A stretch of DNA of 64,000 bases. Source: Candidatus Woesearchaeota archaeon. GTDB lineage: Archaea; Nanobdellota; Nanobdellia; Woesearchaeales; 0-14-0-80-44-23. Position 1 is the stretch's first letter; each line of letters opens with the position of its first letter. The stretch spans positions 13,028 through 77,027 of the forward strand of contig JAPLZQ010000103.1 of the NCBI GenBank assembly GCA_026394965.1. Direction: 5' to 3'. Both the position numbers and the translations under genes were made by a program. A model generated the notes under the pieces. The model was not told the DNA's origin and made no database searches. It saw only the letters and a list, made by a program, of their open reading frames with translations. Shown one piece after another: positions 32,932-50,143 of this stretch.

Positions 32932-34017
32932 ATGAAAGATGAAATGATAAAAAGAATAAAGGAGCTCTCAAGGAATCTGTATGAGAGCATAATTCAGCAG
33001 AAGAAGCCCCAGCTTTCAATGCCTGTTCGCTCGCTATCAAACGTGGATTTTGACAAGGCAAAGGGATATTTTGAGATAGGAAATGAGAAGAAGACAAGGA
33101 CTCTTACTGTAAACACATCAAAGACATTCGCTCAGACATTAAGAATGTTGTCGCTCTCAAAAAGCCTTATTGAAACAGATGACATTGCAACAAAGAGAGA
33201 GGCATACTATGTGTCAAAGAACTGGGGCGAGGCAAGGTTCCTTGAGCAGCCGGAATCAGACATGGTAATGGATGACATTGAAGCAATGTTCATGGTTAAT
33301 AGGGAGCAGATAGGGTTCATTCCTGAGGAAAAGGGGGGCGATGTCTCAGGAGAACTTATTGTAGTGGATAAAGACCCCGAAACAGGAAAGGAGATAAAAA
33401 TTGACTGCACCAAGATGGGAACAGGCGCATACTCAATCCCGAGCAGCGTCGAGCACCTGCAGTTCGAGACAACGGCAAATTTCATACTTGCAATAGAGAC
33501 AGCTGGAATGTACCAGAGGCTTGTAAAGCATGCCTATTTCAGGAAATCAAAATCAATACTGATATCGCTTGGGGGAGTCCCGACAAGGGCATGCAGGCGG
33601 TTCATAAGAAGGCTTTCTGATGAAAAAGACATTCCAGTCTATGTGTTCACAGACGGAGACCCATACGGATACCTGAACATCTACAGGACTCTTAAGGTGG
33701 GAAGCGGAAATGCAGCCCACATCAACAAGTTCTTCTGCGTCCCAAAGGCAAAATACATGGGAATCACCCCGGGAGACATAAACGATTACAAGCTTCCAAC
33801 CCATCCCCTCAAGGAAGTGGACATAAAAAGGGTTAAGGACGGATTCAAGAACGACCCGTTTGTCAAGGCATACCCTGAATGGCAGAAGGCCCTAAACCAA
33901 ATGGTTGAGATGAAAAAGAGGGCTGAGCAGCAGGCGCTTGCACAGCACGGGCTCAACTTTGTGATTACTGACTACCTTCCGCAAAAGCTGGAAAACCAGA
34001 AAACATGGCTTCCTTAA
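32932..34017 (+). CDS. top6A: DNA topoisomerase VI subunit A (Spo11-like)
   Basis: Winged-helix with catalytic Tyr region (EAYYVSKNW), toprim acidic motif YVFTDGDPYGY. Immediately downstream of top6B. 361 aa. Confidence 0.9.
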   Translation: MKDEMIKRIKELSRNLYESIIQQKKPQLSMPVRSLSNVDFDKAKGYFEIGNEKKTRTLTVNTSKTFAQTLRMLSLSKSLIETDDIATKREAYYVSKNWGEARFLEQPESDMVMDDIEAMFMVNREQIGFIPEEKGGDVSGELIVVDKDPETGKEIKIDCTKMGTGAYSIPSSVEHLQFETTANFILAIETAGMYQRLVKHAYFRKSKSILISLGGVPTRACRRFIRRLSDEKDIPVYVFTDGDPYGYLNIYRTLKVGSGNAAHINKFFCVPKAKYMGITPGDINDYKLPTHPLKEVDIKRVKDGFKNDPFVKAYPEWQKALNQMVEMKKRAEQQALAQHGLNFVITDYLPQKLENQKTWLP

Positions 34018-34084
34018 AATTTCCTAATAATAATAAAAAAAATTTATAAAGCAGCAAGAAAATAAATTTATAAAGTTTAACGAA

Positions 34085-34531
34085 TTGTACAAAGATATGA
34101 GAAGTTTCAACAACTTGTTTAAGAAAAAAGTTATTGAAGAAAATAAAAACAACAGAGTTATTCCTTCTGGTATCACTTTTAAAATTATAGTAAATCCGTC
34201 GTTAAGTGAGGATCATCAAAAAGCGTTAAGATATGTTATCATCAAAAATTCTGGGTTAGATCAATATTTTAAAAATATTGATGTGACTTTTTATGATAGC
34301 TATAATGGGAATAATGTGAGCAATGATAAACTTAAGGGAAAACAAATGCTGGTTAAAGTTTTTTGCCCAGAACCCATTGTGAGTATAGAAAAAGATAAAG
34401 AAGACGAGTTCTATAAACAGCTAAAATCTAAAGTTACAGAATATATAATAAAAGCTATTCAAAAAAACACTGAAAAAAAATATAAAGCTAATTTAGAAGA
34501 ATTTCTATTTACATACAGATTAGAATTTTAA
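34085..34531 (+). CDS. hypothetical protein encoded in an AT-rich, compositionally atypical segment
   Basis: 148 aa. Strong AAT/TTA/AAA codon bias unlike the flanking genes, and no recognisable motif. Confidence 0.35.
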   Translation: MYKDMRSFNNLFKKKVIEENKNNRVIPSGITFKIIVNPSLSEDHQKALRYVIIKNSGLDQYFKNIDVTFYDSYNGNNVSNDKLKGKQMLVKVFCPEPIVSIEKDKEDEFYKQLKSKVTEYIIKAIQKNTEKKYKANLEEFLFTYRLEF

Positions 34532-34753
34532 ATACTTTATTTCTTAAAAAGTAATCTATAAAATAAAGAGGAGATAAACTAAATTTATTTTTCTGCGAGC
34601 TTGACCAATTCTGCGTAGAATCCCATTGAAGAGAAATACACTGCTGAAATAACAAAGCTGAGCGCGAAGTAAACAAATGAAAGATCAGAGCCTTCATCTG
34701 TTTTTAAAACAGAGGGGTTTTTGAAACACTTTACTCCGCAATTGGCGCATGCA

Positions 34754-34840
34754 GTGATTGAATCAATGTTGGGGCATGCAGCAATTGAATCAATGCTTTT
34801 TGGCATCTGGCCCTTCACTTCAGAAATTGAATCAATGCTT
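34754..34840. repeat. tandem array of three about 27 bp degenerate repeats, each centred on the palindrome ATTGAATCAAT
   Basis: Palindrome cores at 34757-34767, 34784-34794 and 34826-34836. The longer units GCATGCAG(T/C)(G/A)ATTGAATCAATG(C)TT(TTT)GG are repeated. They overlap weak ORFs on both strands (34585-34977 minus, 34721-34924 plus). Confidence 0.5.
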
Positions 34841-35325
34841 TTTGACGCACTGCCTTCCTGCCAAGAAATTCCAAGAGTCATAATTGAAGCAGCAGTGCGT
34901 GGAGAGATTTCATACTGCGGGTAAGTGTTCAGCCAGTCATGCTCTCTGTTTTCATTTCCCCATCTCATTTTTATCACTCGAAAAATTCTTTTAGATTTTT
35001 TCAGATACCCTAACTCCCTCGCTCTGATTTTGCAGGCATAGCCAGATTAAATAGAGAAGGATATTTTAATTTATCGGGAAAAAATAAAAAACGGCTTGGA
35101 AAAGAGAGAATTATCATAAAAATCCGCATAAACTTCAAAGTCCAAAGAATTACTGCATGGACTCGTTTTGAAAATATCCTGCCAATTTAAAAGCTATGAG
35201 GGATTAGTTACCATTATTTGATAGTGAAAAAACCGAAATATTTATAAACCCTTTCTGAATTGTTATCACTGCCAGTCAATAATAAACCGGCAATAATCTC
35301 ATTTAAAAGGATTGGGGGTAATAAC

Positions 35326-36837
35326 ATGTTAGGCATCGGACAGAAGGCGCAGGCAAGTAATTACCAGCAGCAGATAAGGGATATGGTTTCTTACATAAAT
35401 CAGCATTTCATAGCAGAGGCTCCAAAAGACATATACCTCAATGAATCGCAGGAGGGTATAGGCGGGCACACAAAAGGAGCCCTTCTTAAAGAGGCAATAG
35501 AGAGCGCAAAAAGCAAAAAGCCGATTTCAGAAAATATCCTTCCCATCACAACCACAATGCTTGCATTAAACTCTTGCATCGGAAACAACACCCTCATTTC
35601 AGGAGATGTTGGGACAGGAAAGACAAGGCTCGCAAGCGTAATAGGCTCAATGGTTTACCAAATCCCAGTTGAGATTTTTGACTGGAGAAAAATTGTCGGA
35701 AGCCCGGGAGCAACAGTCAATGACATTTATGCAACTCACGACATCGCTGAACTAAACAAGGGAATAGACATGGCATTTCTTTATCTCCCATTCCATATGC
35801 CTTACCTTATCATAGATGAACTCAACAGGTTCTCTGAACTTGAGCAGAACAGGATAAGAGAGGGCGTTGCAAATGATGTGTGGAACTATGCAAACCACTC
35901 ATGGAAGATAGACAAACAGGTTGTTGTATCAGCAATGAACCCCGATGTTTACGGAGGCACATTCTCCCTCAATGAAAATCTTGTGGACAACTACTCAATT
36001 CTCCTTTGGCCGCCAACATACAATCCAATAGCGCACCAGCATCTTGTAGAGCACGCCGATGAGAAGATAAAAGAGGGGCTGGGGCTTGAAGACAAGGTGG
36101 GCGAGTTTTTTGAATTCTACAAATCCCACAAGAACGATGCAAAAGCAATCAAAGATAAGATATCAGATCTTCAGCAGGCAACTGTCCAGGAATATGAAAG
36201 AAGGAAAATCCCGATAATCAAGAACGGATTTGTGTCAGAGATAAAAAAAGAGATTTCGGAAATAAGGTTTGCAGACGAGCCTCTTCTCTTCTTCTATTCA
36301 ACGCTTTCTGAGATATCCCAAAGCACAAAGTTCGGGGAAAACCGGTTTGAGGATCCAAGGTCAGATGACGAGCATGACAAGAGATACCTCTCAACAAAAG
36401 TGCTTAGGGGGCTTGCAGGAAGGTTCATGAAGGACTGGGAAATGATGTCAAAGGGGCTTGCATGGTACCTTGGAAGGGACAGAGTTACAGTTGAGGATGT
36501 GAAAACAGCATTTGTATTCACATCAGCAGCAAGGATAAACCCTGAAGAAAGATTCAAGCAGAAGGTATGGAACAGCCAAAGAAGCCTCCCCATAAGGCAC
36601 GCTATTGCAAAGCAGGTTATTGATGACTCATTCAAAAACTACACTGATTACACAAGCGCAGACAAGTCATTTGAGCATGTCAGAAAGGCAATACTCATGA
36701 TAACTGAGAATGAGCTTAATGCAGAAACAATCTCTGAAGCAAGAAAAGACCTGGAAATGAGCGACCATCCTGTTGCAAGGACAATTGAAGAAGCTCTCCT
36801 TTGCATGCAATATGAAAGCATGCAGAACAGAAAGTAA
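35326..36837 (+). CDS. MoxR-family AAA+ ATPase with a C-terminal extension of about 250 aa
   Basis: Walker A GDVGTGKT, Walker B LIIDELNRF (the MoxR-type DE(I/L)NR), sensor-1 VVSAMNP, and an ENLVDNYS segment in the position of the MoxR LDRF box. The likely start is the ATG at 35326, preceded by GGGGG. The ORF track starts at 35260. Confidence 0.7.
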   Translation: MLGIGQKAQASNYQQQIRDMVSYINQHFIAEAPKDIYLNESQEGIGGHTKGALLKEAIESAKSKKPISENILPITTTMLALNSCIGNNTLISGDVGTGKTRLASVIGSMVYQIPVEIFDWRKIVGSPGATVNDIYATHDIAELNKGIDMAFLYLPFHMPYLIIDELNRFSELEQNRIREGVANDVWNYANHSWKIDKQVVVSAMNPDVYGGTFSLNENLVDNYSILLWPPTYNPIAHQHLVEHADEKIKEGLGLEDKVGEFFEFYKSHKNDAKAIKDKISDLQQATVQEYERRKIPIIKNGFVSEIKKEISEIRFADEPLLFFYSTLSEISQSTKFGENRFEDPRSDDEHDKRYLSTKVLRGLAGRFMKDWEMMSKGLAWYLGRDRVTVEDVKTAFVFTSAARINPEERFKQKVWNSQRSLPIRHAIAKQVIDDSFKNYTDYTSADKSFEHVRKAILMITENELNAETISEARKDLEMSDHPVARTIEEALLCMQYESMQNRK

Positions 36838-36866
36838 GCGAATCACTTGGCTTGAGAATAAAAAAA

Positions 36867-38171
36867 ATGACTCTTTTTGACATGTCTGGAATAGAGAAAA
36901 GGGAAACAAAGGAAAACTCTCACGGATTAGAGGCGCTCCTCAATGCAGGAGACGCATTCTTCAATGAATTCGGGAGGTTATCCTGGAAAGAAATGATTGA
37001 CTTAATGAAAAAAAACAGAAATTATGCCAAAGAGTTCATAAAAGAAAAACTTAATGGGACAGAGTATTCTACAGAAGACATAGAGGACTATGTTATCATA
37101 AAAAGCGCAGAAGGAACAAGGAATTCAAGCTCCCTAAATTCAAATGTTCTTGGTGAATACTCGGGAAAAATTCTCAGCCTTCTCACAGAGGAAAATTCAA
37201 GTAAAGGAAAAAAAACAGTGATAAAAATTGACGGAAAAGGCGGGACTTTTGACCGTCTTTTTTACGGCGCAGAATTCTTTGATGAAGTATACATCTCAAA
37301 CATGAATGGAGAGGGAATATGCTCATCAATGGCGAACGGCAACATCCTTGCCCTAAACAACTGCAACGGGGGTAATACTGCAACATTCATCGGCGCAGGA
37401 AGCAACGGAGGCGTTAAGGCAGCAATACTGAACAATGCAAATAGCACGCACAATCTATTTTACGATGCTGCGTTTATAAACGGGCACATAGGGCTTGCCA
37501 TGCTCAACAACTCAACAGACAGTTACCATATAGAAATGGCCCTTTCTCTGATATACCCGGGAATAGAGCGGCTTGTAATACGAAACAAATTCAATCCCGA
37601 AAAATTCCAATTTGAAGATTTGCCTGTTGAGGATGGAAATGAAAATAAAGATTTCAAATTTTATGCTGATGAATATGCATTTGGAATAGAAAACGATTCA
37701 GAGATAATGGTTGCAAACAACGTCAGAAATAAAAGAGAATATGGCGGGCATCTATTCGGAAGGATGATTGAGCCAAACACTGAACTGCAGGAATTCCTGA
37801 AAAAAAACGGGATTGACAGAATGGCTGAGCTTTCAGACAAAATGGTGGATGCGGACTTAGACACTATTCAGGAAAATGCCAGAATGATTTACCATATTCA
37901 CAACGAAACTGCAACAAAAGAAATGCTCGAAGGAAGAGACAGATATTATCATACAATAAGACTTTTTGAAGAAATTGTTCCTGATGTTCTTGAAGAAATC
38001 CCCAGAAAACCAAAAGATGATTCAAATAATTATCCAAATCAGGAAAAAATCTATGAAAACGCCGGAGAAAAGATACAGAAGAAGGCAAGCAGGTGGATTA
38101 AAAACACATGGTATGACATAAGAGAAATATTTTTCATAAATCAGATAATGGACAAGATAAGGGGCAGATGA
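36867..38171 (+). CDS. paralog 1 of tandem GIEKREKKE-motif / Gly-Asn periodic-repeat family
   Basis: N-terminal MTLFDMSGIEKRETKE. Core KKTVIKIDGKGGTFDRLFYGAEFFDEVYISNMNGEGICSSMANGNILALNNCNGGNTATFIGAGSNGGVKAAILNNANS, then the C-terminal helix ELQEFLKKNGIDRMAELSDKMVDADLDTIQENARMIYHIHNE. The ORF track starts at a TTG at 36852. Confidence 0.6.
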   Translation: MTLFDMSGIEKRETKENSHGLEALLNAGDAFFNEFGRLSWKEMIDLMKKNRNYAKEFIKEKLNGTEYSTEDIEDYVIIKSAEGTRNSSSLNSNVLGEYSGKILSLLTEENSSKGKKTVIKIDGKGGTFDRLFYGAEFFDEVYISNMNGEGICSSMANGNILALNNCNGGNTATFIGAGSNGGVKAAILNNANSTHNLFYDAAFINGHIGLAMLNNSTDSYHIEMALSLIYPGIERLVIRNKFNPEKFQFEDLPVEDGNENKDFKFYADEYAFGIENDSEIMVANNVRNKREYGGHLFGRMIEPNTELQEFLKKNGIDRMAELSDKMVDADLDTIQENARMIYHIHNETATKEMLEGRDRYYHTIRLFEEIVPDVLEEIPRKPKDDSNNYPNQEKIYENAGEKIQKKASRWIKNTWYDIREIFFINQIMDKIRGR

Positions 38172-38186
38172 AATTCGGTGAAAAAA

Positions 38187-39566
38187 ATGGCATTCAGCGA
38201 TCTTACTGGAATAGAGAAAAGGGAGAAAAAGGAAATAATTTCTTCTGGATTAGAGATGCTTCTTCAGGCAGGAGACGCATTTCTAAACAAATTTTCCAGA
38301 CTATCAATTGAGGAACATGTGGATTTGGAAATGAACAACCACAGTTATGCTGAAGATTTTATAAAAGAAAAACTGAGAGGAGTTGAGTATTGCGCTGCAG
38401 ACATAGTGGACTATGTTATCATAAAAAGCAGGGAAAACGCACAGGAGCGCGGATATCTCGAGGAAGAAGATCTTGCCAGATATTCAGGGATAATTCTAAG
38501 CAGGCTTACAGAGAAAAATTCGAGGAAAGGAAAAAAAACAGTAATAAAAATTGACGGAAAAAATGGTACCTTTAACAATCTTTTTCGTGGAGCAGAATTC
38601 TTTGATGAGATATACATCTCCAACATGAACGGGGGATGGCTGTGCTCAGCAATGGCAAACGGCAATATTCTCGTGCTAAACAACTGCAGCAGCAACGGCG
38701 CTGCAGCATTCATAGGAATGGGAATGAACGGCGGAGTCAAGACAGCAATATTGAACAATGTAACCGAACCTTCATATAAATTAAGACAGGCATTTGGATC
38801 AGTCGATAAATCCGATAAATTTTTTAATATTGCAAATTTAGAGGGGCATGTCGGGCTTGCTATGATCAACAATTCGGCAAACGATGAGGTCATGCAGTCT
38901 TATGATATTGAAACGTTGCATTATCATTCAATCACACATTATTCAATAGCAGAACAGCTGGTAATACGCAACTTCCCTTATCAAAAAAACCCATTTAAAG
39001 AATGGCATCTTAAGAGAATAGGCGACTCTGCAAACTGCGGATTGTATTCTGAAAGCGGGGCGGTATTATTTTCTTACAACATATCCCCCTTACCAGTAAT
39101 CGACTGCTCGCAGGTAATTATTGAAAATAATTTCTATAATTTAGGATTATATACTAACCATCAATTCGGAGAAACAACAGACCCAACTGCTGAAATCCAG
39201 GAATTCCTGAGAAAAAACGGGATGGACAGAATCATTGCGCTTGCAGATGAAATGACTGAAGCAGACTTAGACACAATACAGAAAAACGCCAGACAGATTT
39301 ACCGGATTCACGAAGAAACCGCAACACCAAAAATGCTCAAAGGAAGAGAAAACTACTGTTTCTCAATGAGACGCTCCAAAGAAAATATTCCCGATGTTCT
39401 CGAAGAATTCAGTTCAAACATTCAGAATGGTTCAGATTCAGGAAAAATCTACGAAAGCGCTGAAGAAAAAATACAAAAGAAAAGAGACAGATGGATTAAA
39501 AACGCTCAGTATGACATAAAAAAGATGTCTTTCATAAAATGGGCAATAGACAAAATAAGAAGATAA
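38187..39566 (+). CDS. paralog 2 of tandem GIEKREKKE-motif family
   Basis: MAFSDLTGIEKREKKE..., the same core (KKTVIKIDGKNGTFNNLFRGAEFFDEIYISNMNGGWLCSAMANGNILVLNNCSSNGAAAFIGMGMNGGVKTAILNN), and C-terminal EIQEFLRKNGMDRIIALADEMTEADLDTIQKNARQIYRIHEE. About 45% identical to paralog 1. Confidence 0.6.
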   Translation: MAFSDLTGIEKREKKEIISSGLEMLLQAGDAFLNKFSRLSIEEHVDLEMNNHSYAEDFIKEKLRGVEYCAADIVDYVIIKSRENAQERGYLEEEDLARYSGIILSRLTEKNSRKGKKTVIKIDGKNGTFNNLFRGAEFFDEIYISNMNGGWLCSAMANGNILVLNNCSSNGAAAFIGMGMNGGVKTAILNNVTEPSYKLRQAFGSVDKSDKFFNIANLEGHVGLAMINNSANDEVMQSYDIETLHYHSITHYSIAEQLVIRNFPYQKNPFKEWHLKRIGDSANCGLYSESGAVLFSYNISPLPVIDCSQVIIENNFYNLGLYTNHQFGETTDPTAEIQEFLRKNGMDRIIALADEMTEADLDTIQKNARQIYRIHEETATPKMLKGRENYCFSMRRSKENIPDVLEEFSSNIQNGSDSGKIYESAEEKIQKKRDRWIKNAQYDIKKMSFIKWAIDKIRR

Positions 39567-39581
39567 AATTCGGTGAAAAAA

Positions 39582-41453
39582 ATGGCAGAAGACAAAAAGC
39601 AGGGCGCGGAAGACAAAAAGCTTGAGGAAATCATAAAGAAATGCTTTGAGGAGACAAAGGACCGGTATCTCAGACCTCCGATAAGCGGACCTCTGATAGT
39701 TGACTCTGAAATTGAAATGAACGGCTTGGGAACAGCATTTCTGAACTTCCTTGACTTATCCATTGGAATAAATGCCCCTTTTCTTAAAAAAATGGCAGGA
39801 TATGCCAATGGTGATATTGAAAAGATGGCAAAGGGAATTTTCACCCACGAAATCGGGCATTATATGTTTTTTCCCCAGAATGTAAGCCTTTCACTTTACC
39901 TCTCATATGAGGCAGAGGAGAATTTCAAGGAAAACAGCGCAATAATATACGCCCTTTTCGCTGACTATGTCAACAATTCTCTCATCTATTACCAGCAGGT
40001 TGAGGCAGAGAGTTTGAAAGGGCTACTTGCAAGCTCATATCTCGACAAAAAAAACAGGGCAACAAACAGCGCAATGGCCTTAAGCTACGGAAAAAGGATG
40101 AAAGAGGAATTCTCCGTTGACCTAAGCGGCTTTGAAGAGGAAACCATGAAAAAAATAATCAAGGCAGCAGACGAGATTGATTCAGTAACAGTTAGCATGA
40201 GCAGGAACTACAACCTGCAGTATTCCCAACTCCGAAGATTCGGAGAGGCAATACTTCCCCTTCTTAATATTGACAGGCAAAAAATGAAGGAGAATCAGAA
40301 GAATAACTGCGACAAAAATTGCCAAAACAACGGGGGGCAGGGTGAAAACCCTTGCAATTGCCCTTCTGGCGGGGGCTCAAGAATAATAACCAAGGAAGAT
40401 TTTGACAAGCTTCCCGCTGAAGATAAGCAGAAGATAAAGCAGGCAATAAGGGAAATGATAAAGCACATGGACAAGAAGAAATATGAAAAAATAAAGGAGC
40501 ATTTCCTTGGAAAAGAGAGCGCTAAGAAAGACAGGGCTCCTGGAATCGGAACAGGCATAGAAAATGTGGAATCTGCTGAAGATAAAACAACTGAGTACTA
40601 CAAGGAGCTTGCAGCAGAATACGGGATATTCATAAGGCCCAAGAAAACAAGAACCTTATCCTCAACAAAGCAGGTTTTCGGAAAAGAGGACTTCAAGATG
40701 GACAGCCCGCCGATAGGGATAGACACAAGATACTCCGGCGGAAAAATACTTCCGGGGCTTACAAAGAAAATCAGGATAGAGTCAATACCTTACCTAAAAA
40801 ACTCACAGTCGCTCCCTTCTCTCATAATATACAAGGACGCATCAGGAAGCATGCCTAATCCCCAGCAAGAGACATGCTATGCAACCCTTGCCGGAACAAT
40901 ATTCATAATGAGCTATTTTCGGAGCGGATGCAATGTGGGAGTTTCCCTGTTTGACTCGGAAATGACAGACATATTCAGAAGCGAGGATGAGGATGAGCTG
41001 ATAAAGATGATTTGCAGCTACAAGGGCGGCGGAACATCAATTGATTTGGACAGGTTAAAAAAAGACATAGCAGAATCAAAATCAGAGATTCCAATAGACC
41101 TGAAGAAAATAAATGAGGAAGAAATCAGGAAAAACCCGCTTTTCAGGAAATACCTGAACAAAAACGGAAGGATAAGCCTTCAGGAGCTCACAAGCCAGAG
41201 CTATGTTGACCTGATGATAATAACAGACGGCGGAATCATGAATGTTGATGAGCTGATTGACTTCATGAAAAACAACGAGAAATACCGCCCTACAATAATA
41301 CACACCGGCACATTCCAGCTAGATATACCGGGATATGACCAGCAGCACACCTGCTCTTATGGGGGAATAACCGTGTTCAAGGCGGACTCAAAAGAGGACC
41401 TTGTGAGAATATCGCAGGACATAATTGAAAAGAACCTTATTTCAGGCAACTAA
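39582..41453 (+). CDS. von Willebrand factor A (vWA) domain protein with complete MIDAS, fused to an N-terminal HExxH zincin-like region and a Cys-rich linker
   Basis: C-terminal vWA with MIDAS residues all present: DASGS in IIYKDASGSM, the Thr in KGGGTS, and the Asp in LMIITDGG. The N-terminal region contains FTHEIGHYMFF (HExxH). The linker is CDKNCQNNGGQGENPCNCPSGGG. The start ATG at 39582 shares the upstream 22 bp AAATTCGGTGAAAAAAATGGCA with paralog 2. Confidence 0.65.
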   Translation: MAEDKKQGAEDKKLEEIIKKCFEETKDRYLRPPISGPLIVDSEIEMNGLGTAFLNFLDLSIGINAPFLKKMAGYANGDIEKMAKGIFTHEIGHYMFFPQNVSLSLYLSYEAEENFKENSAIIYALFADYVNNSLIYYQQVEAESLKGLLASSYLDKKNRATNSAMALSYGKRMKEEFSVDLSGFEEETMKKIIKAADEIDSVTVSMSRNYNLQYSQLRRFGEAILPLLNIDRQKMKENQKNNCDKNCQNNGGQGENPCNCPSGGGSRIITKEDFDKLPAEDKQKIKQAIREMIKHMDKKKYEKIKEHFLGKESAKKDRAPGIGTGIENVESAEDKTTEYYKELAAEYGIFIRPKKTRTLSSTKQVFGKEDFKMDSPPIGIDTRYSGGKILPGLTKKIRIESIPYLKNSQSLPSLIIYKDASGSMPNPQQETCYATLAGTIFIMSYFRSGCNVGVSLFDSEMTDIFRSEDEDELIKMICSYKGGGTSIDLDRLKKDIAESKSEIPIDLKKINEEEIRKNPLFRKYLNKNGRISLQELTSQSYVDLMIITDGGIMNVDELIDFMKNNEKYRPTIIHTGTFQLDIPGYDQQHTCSYGGITVFKADSKEDLVRISQDIIEKNLISGN

Positions 41454-41482: not shown

Positions 41483-42394
41483 ATGCCAATAGAAGAACTA
41501 TCAAAAGTGGAGAAGAGGGAAACAATAGAGCACAAAAGCACCGCAGAGGAATTCATAAAAAAATGCGGGGAAGCAACAGAAGAGATAAGCGCATTATGCG
41601 CCCAGAAGAAAAACCGCGGTTTTCAAATTGACACAATACGCGACGTATACACCCCGATGGACCGGCTTCTTGAAAAAAGCCTTTCAGAGCTCGACTATTC
41701 GGCAGCGGACATTGAAACATTCATAAGTTCAGAGTACCATCGAGAAATTGCAGACGCAAAAAGATTGCCGCTGGGAGTCTGCACCAGAATAACACTGGAA
41801 ACCCTCACAAAAAAAAACAGGGCAAAAGGAGAAAAAACAGTAATAAAAATTGACGGCAGCTGGAATGAATTTAACTACTTATTTTTCGGCATACAAAACT
41901 TTGACGAGATATACCTCTCAAACATGAAAGGAGAGAGAATACTCTCAGTATCTGATGGAGGCAAGTGCGGAACAGCTGTCCTAAACAATATTGAAGGAAG
42001 CGGTTTGTGCTCATACCTTGATTACAACATTGGTTCACTTGATAATCTAATCTGCAATATGTCTAAGACGTTTTATTTTAAGGATATGCACCGGTCTAAA
42101 CCAAGAAATATTGGCTTTGCCCTGTTAAGCGATTGCATGGTAAATTCTGATGATCAATTCAACTGCTGCTATTTCAGAGAAATTTTGGGAGAAAAAGAAC
42201 CAATTAAGGAAGACAAGGAAAAATATGAGATTATCCTTGAGCTTGCAGCAAAGATGACTGACTCACCAATAGATGAAATAGAAAACCTTAGCCGGCAGAT
42301 AATACAAATCTATCGCTCAGATAAAGAGGATGAGAATATCATAGAGAAAACCAGCAAAACAGGATATGCCCATTTCAAATGGCTTAAGAGATGA
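41483..42394 (+). CDS. paralog 3 of tandem GIEKREKKE-motif family (short, divergent)
   Basis: MPIEELSKVEKRETIEHKS..., core KTVIKIDGSWNEFNYLFFGIQNFDEIYLSNMKGERILSVSDGGKCGTAVLNNIEGSG. The repeat region is truncated. 303 aa. Confidence 0.55.
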   Translation: MPIEELSKVEKRETIEHKSTAEEFIKKCGEATEEISALCAQKKNRGFQIDTIRDVYTPMDRLLEKSLSELDYSAADIETFISSEYHREIADAKRLPLGVCTRITLETLTKKNRAKGEKTVIKIDGSWNEFNYLFFGIQNFDEIYLSNMKGERILSVSDGGKCGTAVLNNIEGSGLCSYLDYNIGSLDNLICNMSKTFYFKDMHRSKPRNIGFALLSDCMVNSDDQFNCCYFREILGEKEPIKEDKEKYEIILELAAKMTDSPIDEIENLSRQIIQIYRSDKEDENIIEKTSKTGYAHFKWLKR

Positions 42395-42429: not shown

Positions 42430-43323
42430 ATGCCGCTAAACGAGCTTACCGGAATAGAGAAAAGGAATAAAAAGGAAAAGGGAGAGGACAGGACTGAATA
42501 TTTCACAAGAATCAGCAACGGAATAGTCAAAAGCATGCTCAAAGAGTTCGTGAGAATGAGAAAAAGAATCCTTGTCAAGTTCATTGAGGAAACAGATGAG
42601 GAAAGAAAGGAATTTGTCAAAAACGCTATTGGAAGCTTTGAATACAATGAGAGGGATTTGGAAGGGTTGATACAGGCAAAAATTGAAGATGAGAACAAAT
42701 CGCCAATGCTCGGTTACTATACAGGAATTCTTCTGGAAATGCTTACTGAAAGGAACAGAAAAAAGGGAATTGAGACAACTGTCAGGATTGACGGATGCGG
42801 AAGGGACTTTCCCTACCTTTTCATGGGAGCAAGAAACTTTGACAATGTCTACATCTCCAACATAACCGGAGATAAAATACTTTCAAATTCGCTTGATGGA
42901 GGAAGGGGAAAGACAGCGGTTATAAGCGGGCTTAAGGGAGATTCTGCAGCATACTGGATGGCGCGCAAGGGAATGCTTGACCTGCTTGTGATAAATGATT
43001 CTATCGGCGAATTCACTGCAGCAGGAATCGCTGAAGGAGGCTGCATAAAAAGGGTGGTTCTAAGGAACATTACAAGCGACACTGGTTTAACACTTGAATT
43101 CGCGAAAATGAACAACGGCAAAATCCCAGAACTGATTTATGATGCAAAACCGGGAATGTTATCCGGCATAGGCGATTATATCACTATGAAATTCGGGCGC
43201 GTTCCAAGAAGGAGGGGCTCCCTTGAATGCGCAGCCAAGATGAGCGGCGCATCAGTTTATGACATAGAGAAATACGCAAATGAGATAAACAGCCTGTTCA
43301 GAGAAAAAAATGCCACTAAATGA
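42430..43323 (+). CDS. paralog 4 of tandem GIEKREKKE-motif family
   Basis: MPLNELTGIEKRNKKEKGE..., core ETTVRIDGCGRDFPYLFMGARNFDNVYISNITGDKILSNSLDGGRGKTAVISGLKGDSAAYW... 297 aa. Confidence 0.55.
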   Translation: MPLNELTGIEKRNKKEKGEDRTEYFTRISNGIVKSMLKEFVRMRKRILVKFIEETDEERKEFVKNAIGSFEYNERDLEGLIQAKIEDENKSPMLGYYTGILLEMLTERNRKKGIETTVRIDGCGRDFPYLFMGARNFDNVYISNITGDKILSNSLDGGRGKTAVISGLKGDSAAYWMARKGMLDLLVINDSIGEFTAAGIAEGGCIKRVVLRNITSDTGLTLEFAKMNNGKIPELIYDAKPGMLSGIGDYITMKFGRVPRRRGSLECAAKMSGASVYDIEKYANEINSLFREKNATK

Positions 43324-44428
43324 GCTTATTGGAATAGAGAAACGGGAGAAAAATGATAACCCAGAGAGCCAACTTGAAAAGCTGCTTGAAATCGGGGAGG
43401 ATGTTGTAAAAAAATTCGGGAAAAGCGAGCTTGCGGACAGAATTACATATGACAACCGGTTTGAGCCGATTTCAAAATTAAGGGAGAAGATAGAAATCTA
43501 CTGCATGAGAAGCATTGAAAACATTGAATACACAGAAAAGGACATAGAGTCATTTGTGAACGGCAGATTGGGCGTCTCACGGGATACTGGTGAGCAGGTA
43601 ACCATAGGAACTTATTCTGGAATCATTTTGGACATATTAACCATGAAAAACCGGGAAAAGGCAAAAGGAACAAGAATAGCGATTGATGGGAAAGGCGAAG
43701 AGTTTGACTATCTGTTTTCCTGTGCGAAAAACTTTGATGAGGTTTATGTCTCAAACATAAAAGGAGACTACATCTGCACATATGCGGGGGCAGAAGGATA
43801 TGGAAAGATGATAGTCCTGAATGATATTAAAGGCGACTACATTGGAAAATCAATTGCTGCATTGCGCGGAAATGTTGAGATTGCAGTTATAAATCGCGCA
43901 GAAGGATTAGGAACCGGGCATGAAATCGCCTCATACCACGGGAATGCTGGATTAATTATTGTAAACAATGCGATTGGAAGGGAAACATTGATGGACGTGG
44001 CTGTTGAAGGCGGAAGCATAGGGCTCGCTTTGATAAACAAGGCAATTGGCGATTATACTGCCTGGTGCGCAGCTTATGATTCAGGGAGCATTGGGGACCT
44101 CGTAATAACAAACTCAAAAACCAAATCAGAAAAAGGATTTGATATTGATGTAACCAGGATAAAAAACATCCTCCTGAAAATGAATAAATTCAACTTCTCA
44201 AACAAAACTGGCAAAGGAATGCTTATTGGAAACAATGAAGATATGGAAAAGAGTTTCAATGAAGATTACCGAATAAATGAATTATCAGATGCTGTTAAAA
44301 AAATCGTAAAGAAAAAAGAAATTGAAGGGATTATAAAACAGGCAGGAAAGATACAGTCAATATATGAAACCATAAAAGAGAGAGTTGAAGGAGACCTGGC
44401 ATGGATAAAGGAGCATTCGGAGATTTAG
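43310..44428 (+). CDS. paralog 5 of tandem GIEKREKKE-motif family
   Basis: MPLNELIGIEKREKNDNPE. Its first 36 nt are nearly identical to the paralog 4 start. Core TRIAIDGKGEEFDYLFSCAKNFDEVYVSNIKGDYICTYAGAEGYGKMIVLNDIKGDYIGKSIAALRGNVEIAVINRAEGLGTGHEIASYHGNAGLIIVNNAIGRETLMDVAVEGGSIGLALINKAIGDYTAW. 372 aa. Overlaps the paralog 4 stop. Confidence 0.6.
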   Translation: MPLNELIGIEKREKNDNPESQLEKLLEIGEDVVKKFGKSELADRITYDNRFEPISKLREKIEIYCMRSIENIEYTEKDIESFVNGRLGVSRDTGEQVTIGTYSGIILDILTMKNREKAKGTRIAIDGKGEEFDYLFSCAKNFDEVYVSNIKGDYICTYAGAEGYGKMIVLNDIKGDYIGKSIAALRGNVEIAVINRAEGLGTGHEIASYHGNAGLIIVNNAIGRETLMDVAVEGGSIGLALINKAIGDYTAWCAAYDSGSIGDLVITNSKTKSEKGFDIDVTRIKNILLKMNKFNFSNKTGKGMLIGNNEDMEKSFNEDYRINELSDAVKKIVKKKEIEGIIKQAGKIQSIYETIKERVEGDLAWIKEHSEI

Positions 44429-45321
44429 ACGCAATAGAGAAGCGGGAGAAGAAGGAATACCCGCACACACTTGAAGCGCTGATAGAGGCAGAAGAGAAAA
44501 TAAAACCAAAAATCCTGGGGAGATACCCGTCCTATCCAAGAGAGACAGACAAGTATCTTGATGTGCTTTCCCTTGCTGGAGAAGCCCTCAAAAAAACTGA
44601 TTACACGGAAAAAGACATAGAAAACTTTGTGCTTTCCCAATCAGGAAGCGGGGAAAATGAAAGCGAGGAAATGTTTATTGGGATTTACGCGGGAGCAATT
44701 GTGGAAAACCTTGGAAGGAGAAAAGGCAGGAAAAAAACAATAATTGCAATTGACGGAAAGGGAAGGAAATTCAACTACCTCTTCCACTGCATAAGGAATT
44801 TCGGGGAGATATACCTCTCAAACTTCAACGGCACATACATATGCCACAATGCAGCAAGCTACGGAAAGGGCGAAATCCTTGTGCTCAACAGAGTTAAAGG
44901 AAATGGAAACGGCGGATATGCCGGCTCAAAGGGAAAAATAGGGCTTGCAATACTTAATGAAACAGGCGCTGTAAATGAATTCACAATTCTCAGGCAGATG
45001 ATAAATTTCGGGTACAATGAAAAATTCAACATAGAACGCTTTGTGATAAAGGAAAAAAATGTCAAGCTTAGCAAAATGGCGCAGGTTTTCAAAAGGGAAA
45101 TTGAAGTTCCTGAACTGCTTGAGGTTTACAAACTGTCAGAAGAAACAATAAACGGAAACAAACCAGGCAGTTTATACGAAACTACAAGAGTCCAGAAAAT
45201 CAAAATCAAGAGTAAGGAAAAAAAAGAGATAAACAGTTTAACAGAAGAGATGGAAAGCGCAGAAATCGGAGAAATGGCAGATATTGCAAAACGCATAAGG
45301 GAGCTGTGCTATGAACAATAG
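44401..45321 (+). CDS. paralog 6 of tandem GIEKREKKE-motif family
   Basis: MDKGAFGDLDAIEKREKKEYPHTLEALIEAEE..., core KKTIIAIDGKGRKFNYLFHCIRNFGEIYLSNFNGTYICHNAASYGKGEILVLNRVKGNGNGGYAGSKGKIGLAILNETG. 306 aa. Confidence 0.55.
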   Translation: MDKGAFGDLDAIEKREKKEYPHTLEALIEAEEKIKPKILGRYPSYPRETDKYLDVLSLAGEALKKTDYTEKDIENFVLSQSGSGENESEEMFIGIYAGAIVENLGRRKGRKKTIIAIDGKGRKFNYLFHCIRNFGEIYLSNFNGTYICHNAASYGKGEILVLNRVKGNGNGGYAGSKGKIGLAILNETGAVNEFTILRQMINFGYNEKFNIERFVIKEKNVKLSKMAQVFKREIEVPELLEVYKLSEETINGNKPGSLYETTRVQKIKIKSKEKKEINSLTEEMESAEIGEMADIAKRIRELCYEQ

Positions 45322-46417
45322 AAAAACGCCTTTTGATGAAATGTCAGGAATAGAGAAAAGGGAGAAGAAGGAATATTCGCACACACTTGAAGCCCTAATT
45401 GAAGAATCTGGACATTCTGTAAAGAGGATGCTTTCAATGATGATAAAAGCAATGGCTTGGAATGACCTTAGCGGAATGTACATTCACGCATTTCATGAAG
45501 CATCAGAAGAACTTGAAGGGGTTGAATACAACGAAAGAGACCTGTCTGACTTCATAACAGCAAACAGTGGAATTCCAATGGAAAGCGATGAAGAATGCGC
45601 TCTTGGAGTATACTCTGGGATACTGCTTGACCTGCTTACAAGAAGGAGAAGAAAAGAGGGGAAGAAGTCAGTTGTAAAGATTGAAGGCGCAGGAAAGGAA
45701 TTCCATTATCTCTTTTATTATGCAAAAAACTTTGATGAGGTTTACATATCAAACATTGAAGGCGACAAAATCTGCTCAAGGATGGGAAGCCACAGCGGAA
45801 GCGGAAATTTCATAGTGCTTAACAATGTGAATGGAAATTTCATCGCAGACACAGTAGGATACAGCAGCGGAAAAGTGAATATGGTTGTGATAAACAATTC
45901 TCGCGGAATAATGGCTGGAAACAGCATTGCTGAACGCGGAAGCGCTGGATTAATAGTCCTGAACAGCATAAATGCTGCAGGAGATATAGGATGCGCAATT
46001 GCAAAAGAGGGGGAAGCCGGAACAGTCATATTAAACAATCTTAACGGAGACAGGATAGGAGATTACTGCGGAAGCGCTAAAGGAAAAATCGGGAATATTG
46101 CATACCTGTCAATAAAAGCAAAAGAATCAGTCGGCGAATTTGTGCCTGATTATGAGAGCGAAATCGGGAAGATGATAATACTGGACAGCCATGTTAAAAA
46201 TCGCAATGTTGGGGCGGAATTCAGCGGATTCGGCAGATCTGAAATAATAACTGAACAGGAAAATGAAAAAGCAGAAAGGGCGCTGGAAGAAACAGGGATT
46301 AAAGAAATAATCCTGCTTGCAGATGAAATGGGAAAATTTGGCGCTGAAAGATATGAGGAATACGCTCATAAGATTTATTGCTCATACAAAATGGCAGGTG
46401 GAAAATATGCCTTTTGA
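45311..46417 (+). CDS. paralog 7 of tandem GIEKREKKE-motif family
   Basis: ...FDEMSGIEKREKKEYSHTLEALIEESG, where the N-terminus is near-identical to paralog 6 at the nucleotide level. Core KKSVVKIEGAGKEFHYLFYYAKNFDEVYISNIEGDKICSRMGSHSGSGNFIVLNNVNGNFIADTVGYSSGKVNMVVINNSRGIMAGNSIAERGSAGLIVLNSINAAGDIGCAIAKEGEAGTVILNNLNGDRIGDYCGSAKGKIGNIAYL. 368 aa. Confidence 0.6.
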   Translation: MNNRKTPFDEMSGIEKREKKEYSHTLEALIEESGHSVKRMLSMMIKAMAWNDLSGMYIHAFHEASEELEGVEYNERDLSDFITANSGIPMESDEECALGVYSGILLDLLTRRRRKEGKKSVVKIEGAGKEFHYLFYYAKNFDEVYISNIEGDKICSRMGSHSGSGNFIVLNNVNGNFIADTVGYSSGKVNMVVINNSRGIMAGNSIAERGSAGLIVLNSINAAGDIGCAIAKEGEAGTVILNNLNGDRIGDYCGSAKGKIGNIAYLSIKAKESVGEFVPDYESEIGKMIILDSHVKNRNVGAEFSGFGRSEIITEQENEKAERALEETGIKEIILLADEMGKFGAERYEEYAHKIYCSYKMAGGKYAF

Positions 46418-47480
46418 TGAGCTTTCGGGAATAGAGCTGAGAGAAAAAGCAGGGCAGGATAAAAATGCTCTTGAAAAAATCCTTGAAATCTGCGATTATC
46501 TTTGCAGAAACACTTCAGAGGTATACCGCTACCTTTTCGACACCATGAACTCTGATTCAGAATTCTATTCACATGTGCGCTCCTTCGCTCTCTCAAAAAC
46601 CAGGAATATTGATTTCAATGAAAAAGACATTTGTGACTTCATTATTGCAAAATCCTATGAAAAGCAGGAAAAGGAAGGGGTAATAGGGCTTTTTTCAGGA
46701 GTTCTCCTTGACATACTTACAGAAAGAAACAGGAAGCAAAAAAAGAAGACGATAATCAAGATTGACGGCAAAGGCGCAAAATTCAGCTACCTGTTCTACG
46801 GCGCAAGAAACTTTGACGAGATATACCTTTCAAACTTCAACGGCAGATACATCTGCGCAAAGATAGGGAGCGAAGGGAGAGGCGGGATAGCTGCGCTTTC
46901 CAGAATTGACGGAAGCTACACAGGAGAATCGGCAGGGGCATTCTCTGGAGGAATAGATGCGCTGATTGTAAACTCGGCAACTGACAATGAGCTCTGCTCA
47001 AAAATTGGTTTTTCCGGGGGAAAAGCAGGATTAGTGCTGATAAGCAATTCAAAAGCATTTCTTGCAGGAAGCTCAATTGCAAGAGATGGCTCTGCAGGCA
47101 TGATTGTCCTTAACCAGATAATTTCAGAGCACATTGGCGATTACATAGGAGAAGGAGGGCATGTTAAAAAGCTTGCAATGAACAGCCTGTCGGGCTCCTA
47201 TGTTGGCAGAAACATCGGGACAAATAATGGAGAGGTAAGCGAGATAGCGCTCAGGGATATAAAAGCGAGCTATGTTTTTTCATCAGCAAATTTTGAAAGG
47301 ACAAGGAGCCTCATCAGGTACAATGATAATGAAGCTGAAATCTATTTCAGGAAAAACCGCATTGACAGAATCATCTCGCTTTCAGAGGATATTGATTTGG
47401 CAGATGATATTGATGAACTGGAAAGGATATCAAAAAAGATTTATCGGGAATACAGAAAAGGGATGAAAAATGGGGCTTGA
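46407..47480 (+). CDS. paralog 8 of tandem GIEKREKKE-motif family
   Basis: MPFDELSGIELREKAGQDK..., core KKTIIKIDGKGAKFSYLFYGARNFDEIYLSNFNGRYICAKIGSEGRGGIAALSRIDGSYTGESAGAFSGGIDALIVNSATDNELCSKIGFSGGKAGLVLISNSKAFLAGSSIARDGSAGMIVLNQIISEHIGDYIGEGGHVKKLAMNSLSGSYVGRNIG. The ORF track begins upstream at 46317. Confidence 0.6.
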   Translation: MPFDELSGIELREKAGQDKNALEKILEICDYLCRNTSEVYRYLFDTMNSDSEFYSHVRSFALSKTRNIDFNEKDICDFIIAKSYEKQEKEGVIGLFSGVLLDILTERNRKQKKKTIIKIDGKGAKFSYLFYGARNFDEIYLSNFNGRYICAKIGSEGRGGIAALSRIDGSYTGESAGAFSGGIDALIVNSATDNELCSKIGFSGGKAGLVLISNSKAFLAGSSIARDGSAGMIVLNQIISEHIGDYIGEGGHVKKLAMNSLSGSYVGRNIGTNNGEVSEIALRDIKASYVFSSANFERTRSLIRYNDNEAEIYFRKNRIDRIISLSEDIDLADDIDELERISKKIYREYRKGMKNGA

Positions 47481-48549
47481 AGAGCTTTCGGAAATAGAAA
47501 AGAGAAAACCCAGCATCGCAAATAAAAGCGGGCTTGATGCGGTAATATCTGGAATGGAAGAATGCGTGAGCAGGGTAAAGACAATGATGATTCTTCCTTT
47601 TCCACTCTATTCCATACAAAAGGTCTATGAGATAGCAGAGAAAAGGCTGGAATCAGCAGATTATTCTGAAGATGAGATAATTGACTGCATAATTGCAGGC
47701 AGGAAATATGAAGATTATGGGAACAAGGCAATAGCAGGCGCATACACAGGAGCTCTCCTCAGCATCCTTACTGAAAGAAACAGTAAAAAAGGCAGGAAAA
47801 CAATAATGTATGTTGATGAAAAATGCAGCGGGTTTGACTATCTGTTCTACAATGCAAGAAGCTTTGATGAGGTTTACCTGAATAATTTCAACGGCGATTA
47901 TGCATGCTATGGAATGGAAAACGGAAGAAGGGCAGTTGTTAACAATTCGCATGGAGACACAATGTTCTGGGACATTGCATCTGGAAAAATTGAAAAAAGA
48001 GACAATGCGCATCCAAATGCGGAAATGATACTTATTAACAATTACCAGCCAAATGTTTATTTCAATACTGAGATAGGCTCTTTTGCAGGAGCATACGGGG
48101 GCTCAATAGGGCTTTTCCTTGCAAACAGCTGCTGCAGCTGGCAGACAGGAAGGGACATTGCCTACAGCGAGGGCTTTGCAGACACGGTAATACTCAACAA
48201 GACAAAAGGGGATGAAATCGGGAATGGAATTGCATGCAACAGAGGAAGGGTGAATAATCTTCTCATAATCGGAGGAAGCCAGAATTTTGTAGGAAATGAC
48301 ATTGCTCAGGTAGGCGGCTCTGTCGGAAACCTTCTTGTGCAGGGAAAGAAAGGAAAGGTGATGTGCGGGGCTAACTTTTACCGGGTTGAAAGGCAGATAA
48401 GCAGGAGCAGGAACAAGAGAAGGTTCATGGAAAAAAGGGGAATACCAAAGATTCTTGCATTAGCCGAGCAGATGAAAACAGCTGGAAAAGATGAGATTAT
48501 CATGCTCTCTGAGCAAATCTGGCAGGAATACACAGAAAACAGAAAATGA
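47470..48549 (+). CDS. paralog 9 of tandem GIEKREKKE-motif family (most divergent)
   Basis: MGLEELSEIEKRKPSIANKS..., core RKTIMYVDEKCSGFDYLFYNARSFDEVYLNNFNGDYACYGMENGRRAVVNNSHGDT..., then Gly-rich repeats and C-terminal GIPKILALAEQMKTAGKDEIIMLSEQIWQEY. 359 aa. Confidence 0.55.
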   Translation: MGLEELSEIEKRKPSIANKSGLDAVISGMEECVSRVKTMMILPFPLYSIQKVYEIAEKRLESADYSEDEIIDCIIAGRKYEDYGNKAIAGAYTGALLSILTERNSKKGRKTIMYVDEKCSGFDYLFYNARSFDEVYLNNFNGDYACYGMENGRRAVVNNSHGDTMFWDIASGKIEKRDNAHPNAEMILINNYQPNVYFNTEIGSFAGAYGGSIGLFLANSCCSWQTGRDIAYSEGFADTVILNKTKGDEIGNGIACNRGRVNNLLIIGGSQNFVGNDIAQVGGSVGNLLVQGKKGKVMCGANFYRVERQISRSRNKRRFMEKRGIPKILALAEQMKTAGKDEIIMLSEQIWQEYTENRK

Positions 48550-49280: not shown

Positions 49281-49355
49281 GGGTCCATTGCCTAGCCTGG
49301 ATAAGGCGACAGCCTTCTAAGCTGTAGATCGGGGGTTCAAATCCCCCTGGACTCA
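49281..49355 (+). tRNA. tRNA-Arg (anticodon UCU)
   Basis: GGGUCCAUUGCCUAGCCUGGAUAAGGCGACAGCCUUCUAAGCUGUAGAUCGGGGGUUCAAAUCCCCCUGGACUCA. The acceptor GGGUCCA/UGGACUC pairs, the anticodon stem ACAGC/GCUGU with loop CUUCUAA gives anticodon UCU, and the T-arm is GGGGGUUCAAAUCCCCC. Confidence 0.8.
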
Positions 49356-49451
49356 CTTATTATTTATAATTTATTTTTAATTTCTAAATTATTCAGTCGT
49401 TTCTTTTTCCATCCATGCTTTTTCTTATTAAAGAAAAAGGATGGGTGCGCT

Positions 49452-50070: not shown

Positions 50071-50143
50071 GCGGGGGTAGCCAAGTGGCTAAGGCAATCG
50101 CCTGCAGAGCGATCATTCGGGGGTTCGAGTCCCTCCCCTCGCT
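50071..50143 (+). tRNA. tRNA-Cys (anticodon GCA)
   Basis: GCGGGGGUAGCCAAGUGGCUAAGGCAAUCGCCUGCAGAGCGAUCAUUCGGGGGUUCGAGUCCCUCCCCUCGCU. Acceptor GCGGGGG/CCCUCGC, anticodon stem AUCGC/GCGAU with loop CUGCAGA giving GCA, and T-arm GGGGGUUCGAGUCCCUC. Confidence 0.8.

Follow-up and report, generated by a model that had tools for sequence, protein, structure and literature searches.

Introduction

How does a MoxR-class ATPase select and treat its substrates when the von Willebrand factor A (vWA) protein encoded beside it carries what looks like a peptidase domain? The question is raised by a gene at 39582-41453 of a 64,000-nucleotide (nt) stretch of DNA from a Candidatus Woesearchaeota archaeon. The whole of this stretch is called the window in the following, and coordinates given with no locus name refer to it. 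The protein has a zincin-like N-terminal domain with an HExxH motif and a vWA domain with a metal-ion-dependent adhesion site (MIDAS) at the C-terminus. Its gene lies in an operon with an AAA+ ATPase gene and with genes for paralogous beta-helix proteins, here called the partners, which share a short N-terminal peptide, the tag. The reading which we prefer, and to which we give a probability of about 0.5, is that the zincin-vWA protein is a cofactor of a MoxR-class ATPase which handles or clips the tagged partners as its clients, and that it is a divergent relative of the DUF2201 proteins. What is new is the divergent DPANN family and the logic of its operon, where arrays of tagged beta-helix proteins, the candidate clients, are joined to an ATPase and a zincin-vWA cofactor; a literature search found no description of such a system.

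The protein and its family

The gene is a single open reading frame (ORF) of 623 codons plus a stop codon and codes for 623 amino acids (aa); an alternative GTG start is found at 39573, three codons upstream. The same sequence is on record at NCBI as hypothetical protein NTV63_04800 of a metagenome-assembled genome (MAG) of Candidatus Woesearchaeota. A preliminary description, made by reading the DNA, saw in it a vWA protein with an intact MIDAS fused to an HExxH module. Translation of 39582-41453 gives back all the strings on which it was built, namely FTHEIGHYMFFPQN, the linker CDKNCQNNGGQGENPCNCPSGGG, DASGS, GGGTS and ITDGG. The motif HEIGH does lie within FTHEIGHYMFFPQN; it was placed at about residue 95 and is in fact residues 89-93.

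The protein matches no model in Pfam, NCBIfam, PHROGs or PADLOC, and the vWA domain as well was missed by Pfam and NCBIfam. Sequence-profile searches of the PDB with full-length and N-domain profiles gave no meaningful match. A word-indexed search found 27 relatives. With a profile of the N-domain such a search returned only 2 proteins, whereas an exhaustive hidden Markov model (HMM) search with the same profile gave 436 cluster representatives at E <=1e-3 and 216 at E <=1e-10. Nearly all of the 436 are 450-700 aa long and have the zincin-like domain at the N-terminus. The relatives which could be assigned to a genome all belong to Woesearchaeota or Nanoarchaeota/Nanoarchaeia, except for two MAGs labelled Methanosarcinales.

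Conservation was counted in 144 full-length representatives, most of which are 18-26% identical to the query. H89, E90 and H93 of the zincin motif are kept in 97, 96 and 97% of them and the nearby P98 in 99%. By our own estimate a lone HExxH occurs by chance in about 2% of proteins of this length, an explanation which is ruled out by the 96-97% conservation among such divergent members. The MIDAS, which had been called complete, is indeed so: D419, S421, S423, T485 and D549 are all present and are conserved in 100, 99, 97, 96 and 97% of the family. Since HExxH and MIDAS are both kept across the divergent family, both sets of motifs must be under selection. The peptidase reading thus survives the alignment of homologs, in which the catalytic Glu is conserved along with the His pair.

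The zincin-like domain

A model of residues 1-236, based on a 25-sequence alignment, has a predicted local distance difference test score (pLDDT) of 95.2 and a predicted template modelling score (pTM) of 0.91. It begins with a long helix followed by three strands, a helix, the helix 79-95 with HExxH, the helix 101-137 and further helices; a mixed sheet with a backing helix ahead of the active-site helix and a lower helical subdomain are the features of a zincin fold. The best structural matches are M48 peptidases and minigluzincins (3c37, BepA, Ste24, proabylysin, projannalysin, selecase), with which the domain shares the three-stranded sheet, the backing helix and the HExxH active-site helix. 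Matches were also found to YbeY and to a predicted zincin-like metalloprotease, and to PepO, neprilysin, ECE-1 and ZMPSTE24, with Spartan, Wss1 and aspzincins ranked lower. The domain therefore models confidently as zincin-like and not as a non-peptidase fold. That it is a peptidase is predicted from its sequence; the conserved Glu of HExxH argues for hydrolysis.

The vWA domain, the linker and the middle region

The full-length model, which is based on the alignment of the 144 sequences, has a pLDDT of 89.2 and a pTM of 0.84. The vWA domain covers residues 413-620 in this model, with an insertion of low confidence at 500-541. The C-terminal part matches solved vWA domains with a Foldseek probability of 1.0, among them collagen VI N2, NorD in the NorQ-NorD complex, CMG2, integrin I-domains and the MIDAS domain of MDN1. 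Pfam VWA_2 is matched below its cut-off by 7 of the 27 closest relatives (best E 4.7e-05), with no match by the protein itself, and a distant member of the family, P0156, scores above the VWA_2 and VWA cut-offs. The structural matches together with the conserved MIDAS residues bear out the vWA fold that had been read from three short motifs.

The Cys-rich linker, to which the preliminary description drew attention, exists in this protein and is not a feature of the family. Any Cys is found in this segment in 40 of the 144 members (28%), its length varies from 0 to 209 residues, its composition is of low complexity, and in the model residues 247-270 are disordered (pLDDT 50-66). A conserved zinc ribbon or a cysteine switch is thereby ruled out. 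The linker is a lineage-specific disordered segment, and its cysteines are incidental.

The middle region starts with helices (271-309), followed by a conserved disordered loop around I322-G323, a helix with Y339-Y340, and a long beta-hairpin (359-405) with the conserved tip SGGKILPGLTK; G323 is kept in 90%, Y340 in 98% and P391 in 96% of the family. The near-invariant Ile-Gly (40545-40550) stands in a part of the loop with pLDDT <50, and Y339-Y340 (40596-40601) is on the helix which follows it. Together I322-G323 and Y339-Y340 make up a linear motif which is conserved in the stretch from the zincin to the vWA domain. By analogy with the NorQD work (PMC13036017) the middle region might serve as a finger which contacts the ATPase.

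The near-invariant Ile-Gly between structured elements is also what would be expected if the zincin domain cuts its own chain, at this loop or at the disordered linker, and so releases or activates the vWA half. This we regard as highly improbable: about 150 relatives, nearly all with a length of 450-700 aa, included no split two-gene version, and the partner tags have no significant similarity to any segment of the cognate zincin-vWA proteins. A loop or linker mimicking the tag, as a pseudo-substrate or autoprocessing site, likewise found no support, local alignments of tags to cognate zincin-vWA proteins giving z <=3.3 at scattered positions.

Relation to the DUF2201 proteins

The preliminary description held that vWA proteins working with MoxR ATPases are usually simple adaptors, by which measure a fused peptidase-like module would be unusual. 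The contrast was overstated, since such an architecture is already catalogued: Pfam has DUF2201_N (PF13203, putative metallopeptidase domain) followed by DUF2201 (PF09967, VWA-like domain), and it is associated with AAA+ genes. An example is gp36 of Delftia phage RG-2014, which carries DUF2201_N (E 2e-38) and DUF2201 (E 3e-21) and has an AAA_5 gene three genes upstream. In their sources 120 relatives are named 'DUF2201 family putative metallopeptidase' or 'predicted metal-dependent peptidase'. The Pfam HMMs of DUF2201_N and DUF2201 are matched neither by the protein nor by its 27 closest relatives; a distant member, P0159, has a weak match to DUF2201 below the cut-off (E 0.0018).

Profile-profile comparison with hhalign gives a probability of 77.7% (E 1.9e-5) for the N-domain against DUF2201_N, and 25% (E 7.7e-4) for the vWA domain against DUF2201 with the MIDAS in register, where cross-domain controls stay below 1% (E 0.1-0.19). 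When the HExxH columns are removed the N-domain comparison keeps its register with a probability of 13% (E 0.0021), and controls with unrelated profiles again stay below 1% (E 0.09-0.33). The register brings together the strand TA..IN..F, the HExxH, and D128 with the conserved Asp of 'NyACDixINN' in DUF2201_N. A Foldseek search of the BFVD viral models gave alignments across both domains, with E 5e-6 to 1e-5 for DUF2201-type phage proteins; the matches include phage VWFA and CobT-like proteins, a 406-aa 'Metallopeptidase domain protein' (E 4.8e-6) and a 393-aa 'VWA-like domain-containing protein' (E 1e-5).

In both types a zincin-like N-domain with HExxH precedes a vWA-like C-domain that carries D-x-S-G-S, GGT and TD, the motif blocks of the N-domain stand in one order (a TA..IN/NP..F strand, HExxH, xxDxxxNN), and an AAA+ gene lies nearby, at 35260-36837 in the window and of the AAA_5 kind in the phage. 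The archaeal protein differs in being about 200 residues longer, with an 11-residue insertion after HExxH, the disordered linker, the middle region 271-412 and an insertion of about 40 residues in the vWA domain, and the single phage locus inspected showed no array of tagged partners. We conclude that the family is probably related to the DUF2201_N + DUF2201 architecture, though very divergent from it. No experimental work on this architecture or on the present family was found in the literature.

The operon and its partner genes

The first gene of the operon codes for a 525-aa ATPase. A profile of 12 orthologues has its best PDB match in 2r44, a MoxR protein from C. hutchinsonii (E 1.6e-13), followed by ChlI/BchI, which places it in the MoxR/chelatase clade, as had been proposed; Pfam AAA_3 is reached with 19.4 bits against a cut-off of 27, and AAA_lid_2 is also below cut-off. 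An ATPase gene lies upstream of the zincin-vWA gene in 12 of 16 loci, and the remaining four are all truncated upstream. The order which recurs across the loci analysed is ATPase, partners, zincin-vWA, more partners. This conserved synteny is the basis on which we suppose that the cofactor binds the ATPase and modulates it.

The adjacent paralogs are real and number nine in the window, two upstream and seven downstream of the zincin-vWA gene. They share the N-terminal peptide [DE][LM][ST]xIEKRE, with Glu and Arg invariant, a helical region, a core KTxIKIDGKGxxFxYLF..NFDEVYxSN and a variable count of beta-helix-like repeats. Three partners from locus L003 which were scanned directly exceed the Pfam GXGXG cut-off, and hhalign shows the window paralogs to be full-length homologues of the L003 partners (probability 91.8%, E 7e-7). 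The partner alignment has no conserved cluster of His or Cys, and inspection revealed no signal peptides. Several of the genes overlap by 11-28 nt (43310-43323, 44401-44428, 45311-45321, 46407-46417, 47470-47480), which suggests co-translation or translational coupling across the array.

In the loci of relatives the number of partners ranges from 1 to at least 28. L001 has 1 on each side of the zincin-vWA gene, L010 has 3 + 7, L011 1 + 2, L014 at least 16, L019 11, L020 at least 7 and L003 at least 28. The last of these arrays, L003:1621-21737, consists of tandem GXGXG partner genes (193-319 aa) around one zincin-vWA gene over about 20 kb; consecutive genes overlap by about 13 nt, and the products have a common N-terminus, MAEI[ST]DYLxGLxEQxVQEE, and a common C-terminus, CKAKIYHKGxxVWP. 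A minimal version is seen in another archaeon (L025:3164-6037), with an AAA_5 ATPase (409 aa) and a zincin-vWA protein (453 aa). The third ORF there codes for a 98-aa Lys/Ser-rich protein and overlaps the stop codon of the zincin-vWA gene; no GXGXG partner or obvious tag is present. Reverse-transcriptase genes adjoin partner arrays in two unrelated loci. The one at L010:17094-18368 has Pfam RVT_1 and GIIM domains (group II intron type) and an AbiEii gene nearby, and that at L023:13772-15430 is a 552-aa ORF recognised by eye only.

Arrays of such variable size could also be read as a conflict or diversification module, where the partners would serve as variable effectors or as decoys in conflicts of DPANN archaea with hosts or viruses and would be activated by the ATPase-vWA-peptidase core, as in the vWA-MoxR ternary systems. 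Besides the spread in copy number between genomes, the retroelement genes in L010 and L023 fit with this reading, the best whole-protein fold matches are viral, and peptidase domains are sometimes fused to the vWA component, rarely as metallopeptidases, in the vWA-MoxR-VMAP ternary conflict systems (Kaur et al., 2020, PMC7159879). These systems share with ours the MoxR plus vWA pair and the occasional peptidase fusion. They are, however, hosted by multicellular bacteria and not by DPANN archaea, and at the loci of the present family neither a third component like VMAP nor an effector domain, such as a nuclease or toxin, was seen; the partners there are of the GXGXG beta-helix type. PADLOC and PHROGs gave no matches, the partners lack recognisable signal peptides, and the loci lie among housekeeping genes (topoisomerase VI, tRNAs, ribosomal proteins, aminoacyl-tRNA synthetases). 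We consider a conflict function unlikely.

The N-terminal tag

The preliminary description suggested the adjacent paralogs as possible substrates. The core of the tag is L-x-G-[IL] followed by charged residues. A search of residues 1-60 in 95 partners found the pattern L-x-G-[ILM] in 59 of them, where shuffled sequences gave 5.4 and residues 61-120 gave 14. Lineages have their own variants, such as LSGIEKRE, LKGIKERE, LKGIQGPRDIKERE, LKGIKPKGVK, LDGIEGARDVQ, LPGLDGMLPG..VKGR and DYLNGLNEQVVQEE; those of L010 and L011 are more divergent. Ahead of the tag stands an extension whose length varies and in which Gln and Thr are often abundant, and MPLNELTGIEKRNKKE is an example of an N-terminal peptide of a partner. 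The vWA insertion of a zincin-vWA protein from L003 (P0024, L003:10001-11737, residues 460-475) contains DFLRGLSTDTVKE, which resembles the tag DYLNGLNEQVVQE of the cognate partners, a likeness that is not significant (z <=1.5).

The genes flanking the zincin-vWA gene in L023 and L024 code for an unrelated 290-aa domain with no Pfam match, starting with DYLKMLFGEPRAREQNVVLDRI in the same style of tag. Such cargo-swapped genes are found at L023:9067-9939, 11569-12441 and 12464-13357 and also in L022 and L024, all in one Woesearchaeota/Nanoarchaeia branch. With the tag on unrelated cargo in L023 and L024, it behaves as a portable recognition element which co-varies with the cognate machinery. 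A conserved N-terminal peptide on adjacent paralogs makes them plausible clients, and the analysis of the tag strengthens the proposal; judged from these sequences, the paralogs are probably clients of the ATPase/zincin-vWA pair.

The swapped cargo bears on another explanation, in which the ATPase-vWA pair inserts a metal into the client and HExxH holds the metal transiently, as in NorQD, CoxDE and CobST/BchID. It could account for NorD being among the nearest solved vWA structures, for the CobT-like proteins among the BFVD matches, and for ChlI/BchI coming next after MoxR 2r44 in the comparison of the ATPase. Yet a lineage which swaps its cargo and keeps the tag points to recognition of the tag and not of a metal site, and the partner alignment lacks the His or Cys cluster of a metal site. 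GXGXG beta-helix domains are not known as metalloproteins. Metal insertion is in our view very unlikely.

A model for the zincin-vWA protein

In the model which we prefer, that of a cofactor handling or clipping tagged clients, the tag would dock on the cofactor, with its acidic residues on the MIDAS metal and/or its L-x-G-I strand in the zincin cleft. The variable extension upstream of the tag would be a removable propeptide, which the zincin site may clip, plausibly just before the hydrophobic Ile/Leu. Such a cut (G|I), between a small and a hydrophobic residue, would suit the P1' preferences of zincins. The ATPase would grip the cofactor by a finger-like element, for which the hairpin 359-405 and the insertion 500-541 are candidates, and would supply remodelling force or gating; the matured beta-helix proteins would then be released or assembled. 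NorQ grips NorD through such an element (PMC13036017).

Several observations weigh against this reading. A conserved third zinc ligand in a credible position was not found in the 144-member alignment and the models. The preliminary description asked for such a ligand downstream of HExxH, and a conserved acidic residue does exist there: D128, which is Asp in 90% and acidic in 96% of the family, is the sole conserved ligand-capable residue in 1-410 besides HExxH. Its position is geometrically doubtful. The helix 101-137/138 is unbroken according to DSSP and starts five residues past the end of the active-site helix, and D128 is 27 residues into it. By our own geometric estimate from the model its alpha-carbon would be at least about 15 A from that of H93 unless the helix is sharply kinked, and D128 is for this reason only a doubtful third ligand. 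Position 100 is geometrically plausible but is D/E/N in just 76%, and Asn in the present protein. As the third ligand could not be placed, catalysis is put forward as a prediction. The lack of any match in Pfam, NCBIfam, PHROGs or PADLOC makes the link to DUF2201 statistically modest. The Gly of the tag is replaced in 3 of the 9 window paralogs, and in some lineages (e.g. L014) the tag is basic with no acidic residue nearby, which argues against a simple contact between a carboxylate and the MIDAS. Finally, the characterised MoxR-vWA systems remodel proteins or insert metals, and none is known to proteolyse (PMC13036017, PMC3893208).

These points lead to an alternative in which the protein belongs to a remodelling or assembly chaperone that cuts nothing. 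The zincin-like domain, as a metal-dependent or metal-independent peptide-binding module, would hold the tag together with the MIDAS while the ATPase acts on the partners by remodelling, unfolding or assembling them; hetero-oligomers or fibres might be the products of such assembly. That all characterised MoxR-vWA pairs are remodellers or insertases and that a credible third ligand is missing would both be explained, and the translationally coupled arrays suggest co-assembly. A pure binding site would on the other hand not need the Glu of HExxH, which is kept as strongly (96%) as the His pair, and the variable extensions upstream of the tag resemble removable propeptides. We find this chaperone rather unlikely, and retain as our preferred reading the cofactor which handles or clips its clients.

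Comparison with known ATPase systems

NorQ-NorD, CbbQ-CbbO and RavA-ViaA are, as the pair described here, products of operons with a MoxR-clade ATPase and a MIDAS-bearing vWA protein, and NorD is among the solved vWA structures closest to ours. The cofactors in these systems have no peptidase-like domain and one defined client each (NOR, Rubisco, Frd/Nuo), whereas the present cofactor has a zincin-like domain, and its gene is accompanied by those of one to dozens of tagged candidate clients, which are paralogs. In concept there is also a likeness to FtsH, in which an AAA+ motor is coupled to an HExxH metallopeptidase (M41 zincin) with Asp as third ligand, as is possibly the case here. FtsH differs in that it belongs to the classical AAA clade, is one polypeptide anchored in the membrane, and threads its substrates; in the present system the ATPase is of the MoxR clade and the protease-like domain is found on a separate vWA cofactor with no membrane anchor.

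Genes and features in the window

The features are listed in Table 1. Directly upstream of the system are ORFs which by eye resemble topoisomerase VI subunits B (31103-32920) and A (32932-34017), preceded by a KH-domain-like ORF (30216-31013; by eye from the translation). The topoisomerase VI-like ORFs agree with an archaeal chromosome. The ATPase gene begins about 730 nt past the end of a 148-aa Lys/Asn-rich ORF with no family match (34085-34531). The stretch 34085-35259 may be the regulatory region of the operon; the GC content falls to 0.354 in 34001-36000. Just downstream of the array are tRNA-Arg(TCT) at 49281-49356 and tRNA-Cys(GCA) at 50071-50143, and a terminator-like match at 49333-49354 was discarded since it is the T-arm of the tRNA-Arg. 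Scans for sigma-70 promoters and terminators were set aside as uninformative for an archaeal host.

Table 1. Coordinates in the window of the operon genes and of the domains and motifs of the zincin-vWA protein.
Feature	Position	Strand	Residues	Remarks
ATPase	35260-36837	+	525 aa	MoxR/chelatase-clade AAA+; first operon gene; profile against PDB
Partner 1	36852-38171	+		partner HMM E 2.4e-36; tag FDMSGIEKRE; N-terminal tag, helical domain, GXGXG-like beta-helix
Partner 2	38178-39566	+		partner HMM E 3.3e-42; tag SDLTGIEKRE
Zincin-vWA gene	39582-41453	+	623 aa	single ORF
Zincin-like N-domain	39582-40319	+	1-246	
HEIGH motif	39846-39860	+	H89, E90, H93	on predicted active-site helix 79-95; 96-97% conserved
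D128 codon	39963-39965	+	128	candidate, doubtful third ligand
Cys/Gly-rich linker	40308-40376	+	243-265	CDKNCQNNGGQGENPCNCPSGGG
Conserved middle region	40392-40817	+	271-412	
vWA domain with MIDAS	40818-41453	+		Foldseek and conservation
DASGS	40836-40850	+	419-423	
GGGTS	41025-41039	+	482-486	
Low-confidence vWA insertion	41079-41204	+	500-541	
ITDGG	41220-41234	+	547-551	
Partner 3	41483-42394	+		partner HMM E 3.3e-30; tag EELSKVEKRE
Partner 4	42430-43323	+		partner HMM E 2.2e-42; tag NELTGIEKRN
Partner 5	43310-44428	+		partner HMM E 9.3e-42; tag NELIGIEKRE; 14 nt overlap with partner 4
Partner 6	44401-45321	+		partner HMM E 1e-33; tag GDLDAIEKRE
Partner 7	45311-46417	+		partner HMM E 5.1e-39; tag DEMSGIEKRE
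Partner 8	46407-47480	+		partner HMM E 3.7e-43; likely start is the Met of MPFDELSGIELRE; mechanical ORF from 46317
Partner 9	47470-48549	+		partner HMM E 2.2e-42; tag EELSEIEKRK

Implications

MoxR-vWA pairs are widespread; mechanisms are known for few of them, and these are all remodellers or metal insertases. A conserved protease-like domain linked to tagged candidate clients offers a testable case for a MoxR system which processes its substrates, and a tag-directed, ATP-coupled processing protease would, if true, be the first MoxR-vWA machine of that kind. The unstudied DUF2201 architecture would gain its first proposed substrates. The system was missed by the Pfam, NCBIfam, PHROGs and PADLOC models tried, and annotation based on such libraries would thus miss it.

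A wider picture can be offered as a tentative suggestion, with the odds against it. It would be a three-component system not described before and so far seen essentially only in DPANN archaea, in which a MoxR ATPase and a zincin-vWA protein would recognise a portable tag. Through proteolytic maturation or through assembly, beta-helix proteins from an expandable family, or swapped cargo, would become part of a cellular structure, for instance a fibre or an apparatus for contact with the host. These arrays take up as much as about 20 kb in a genome of about 1 Mb, which points to an important, so far uncharacterised cellular feature of DPANN archaea.

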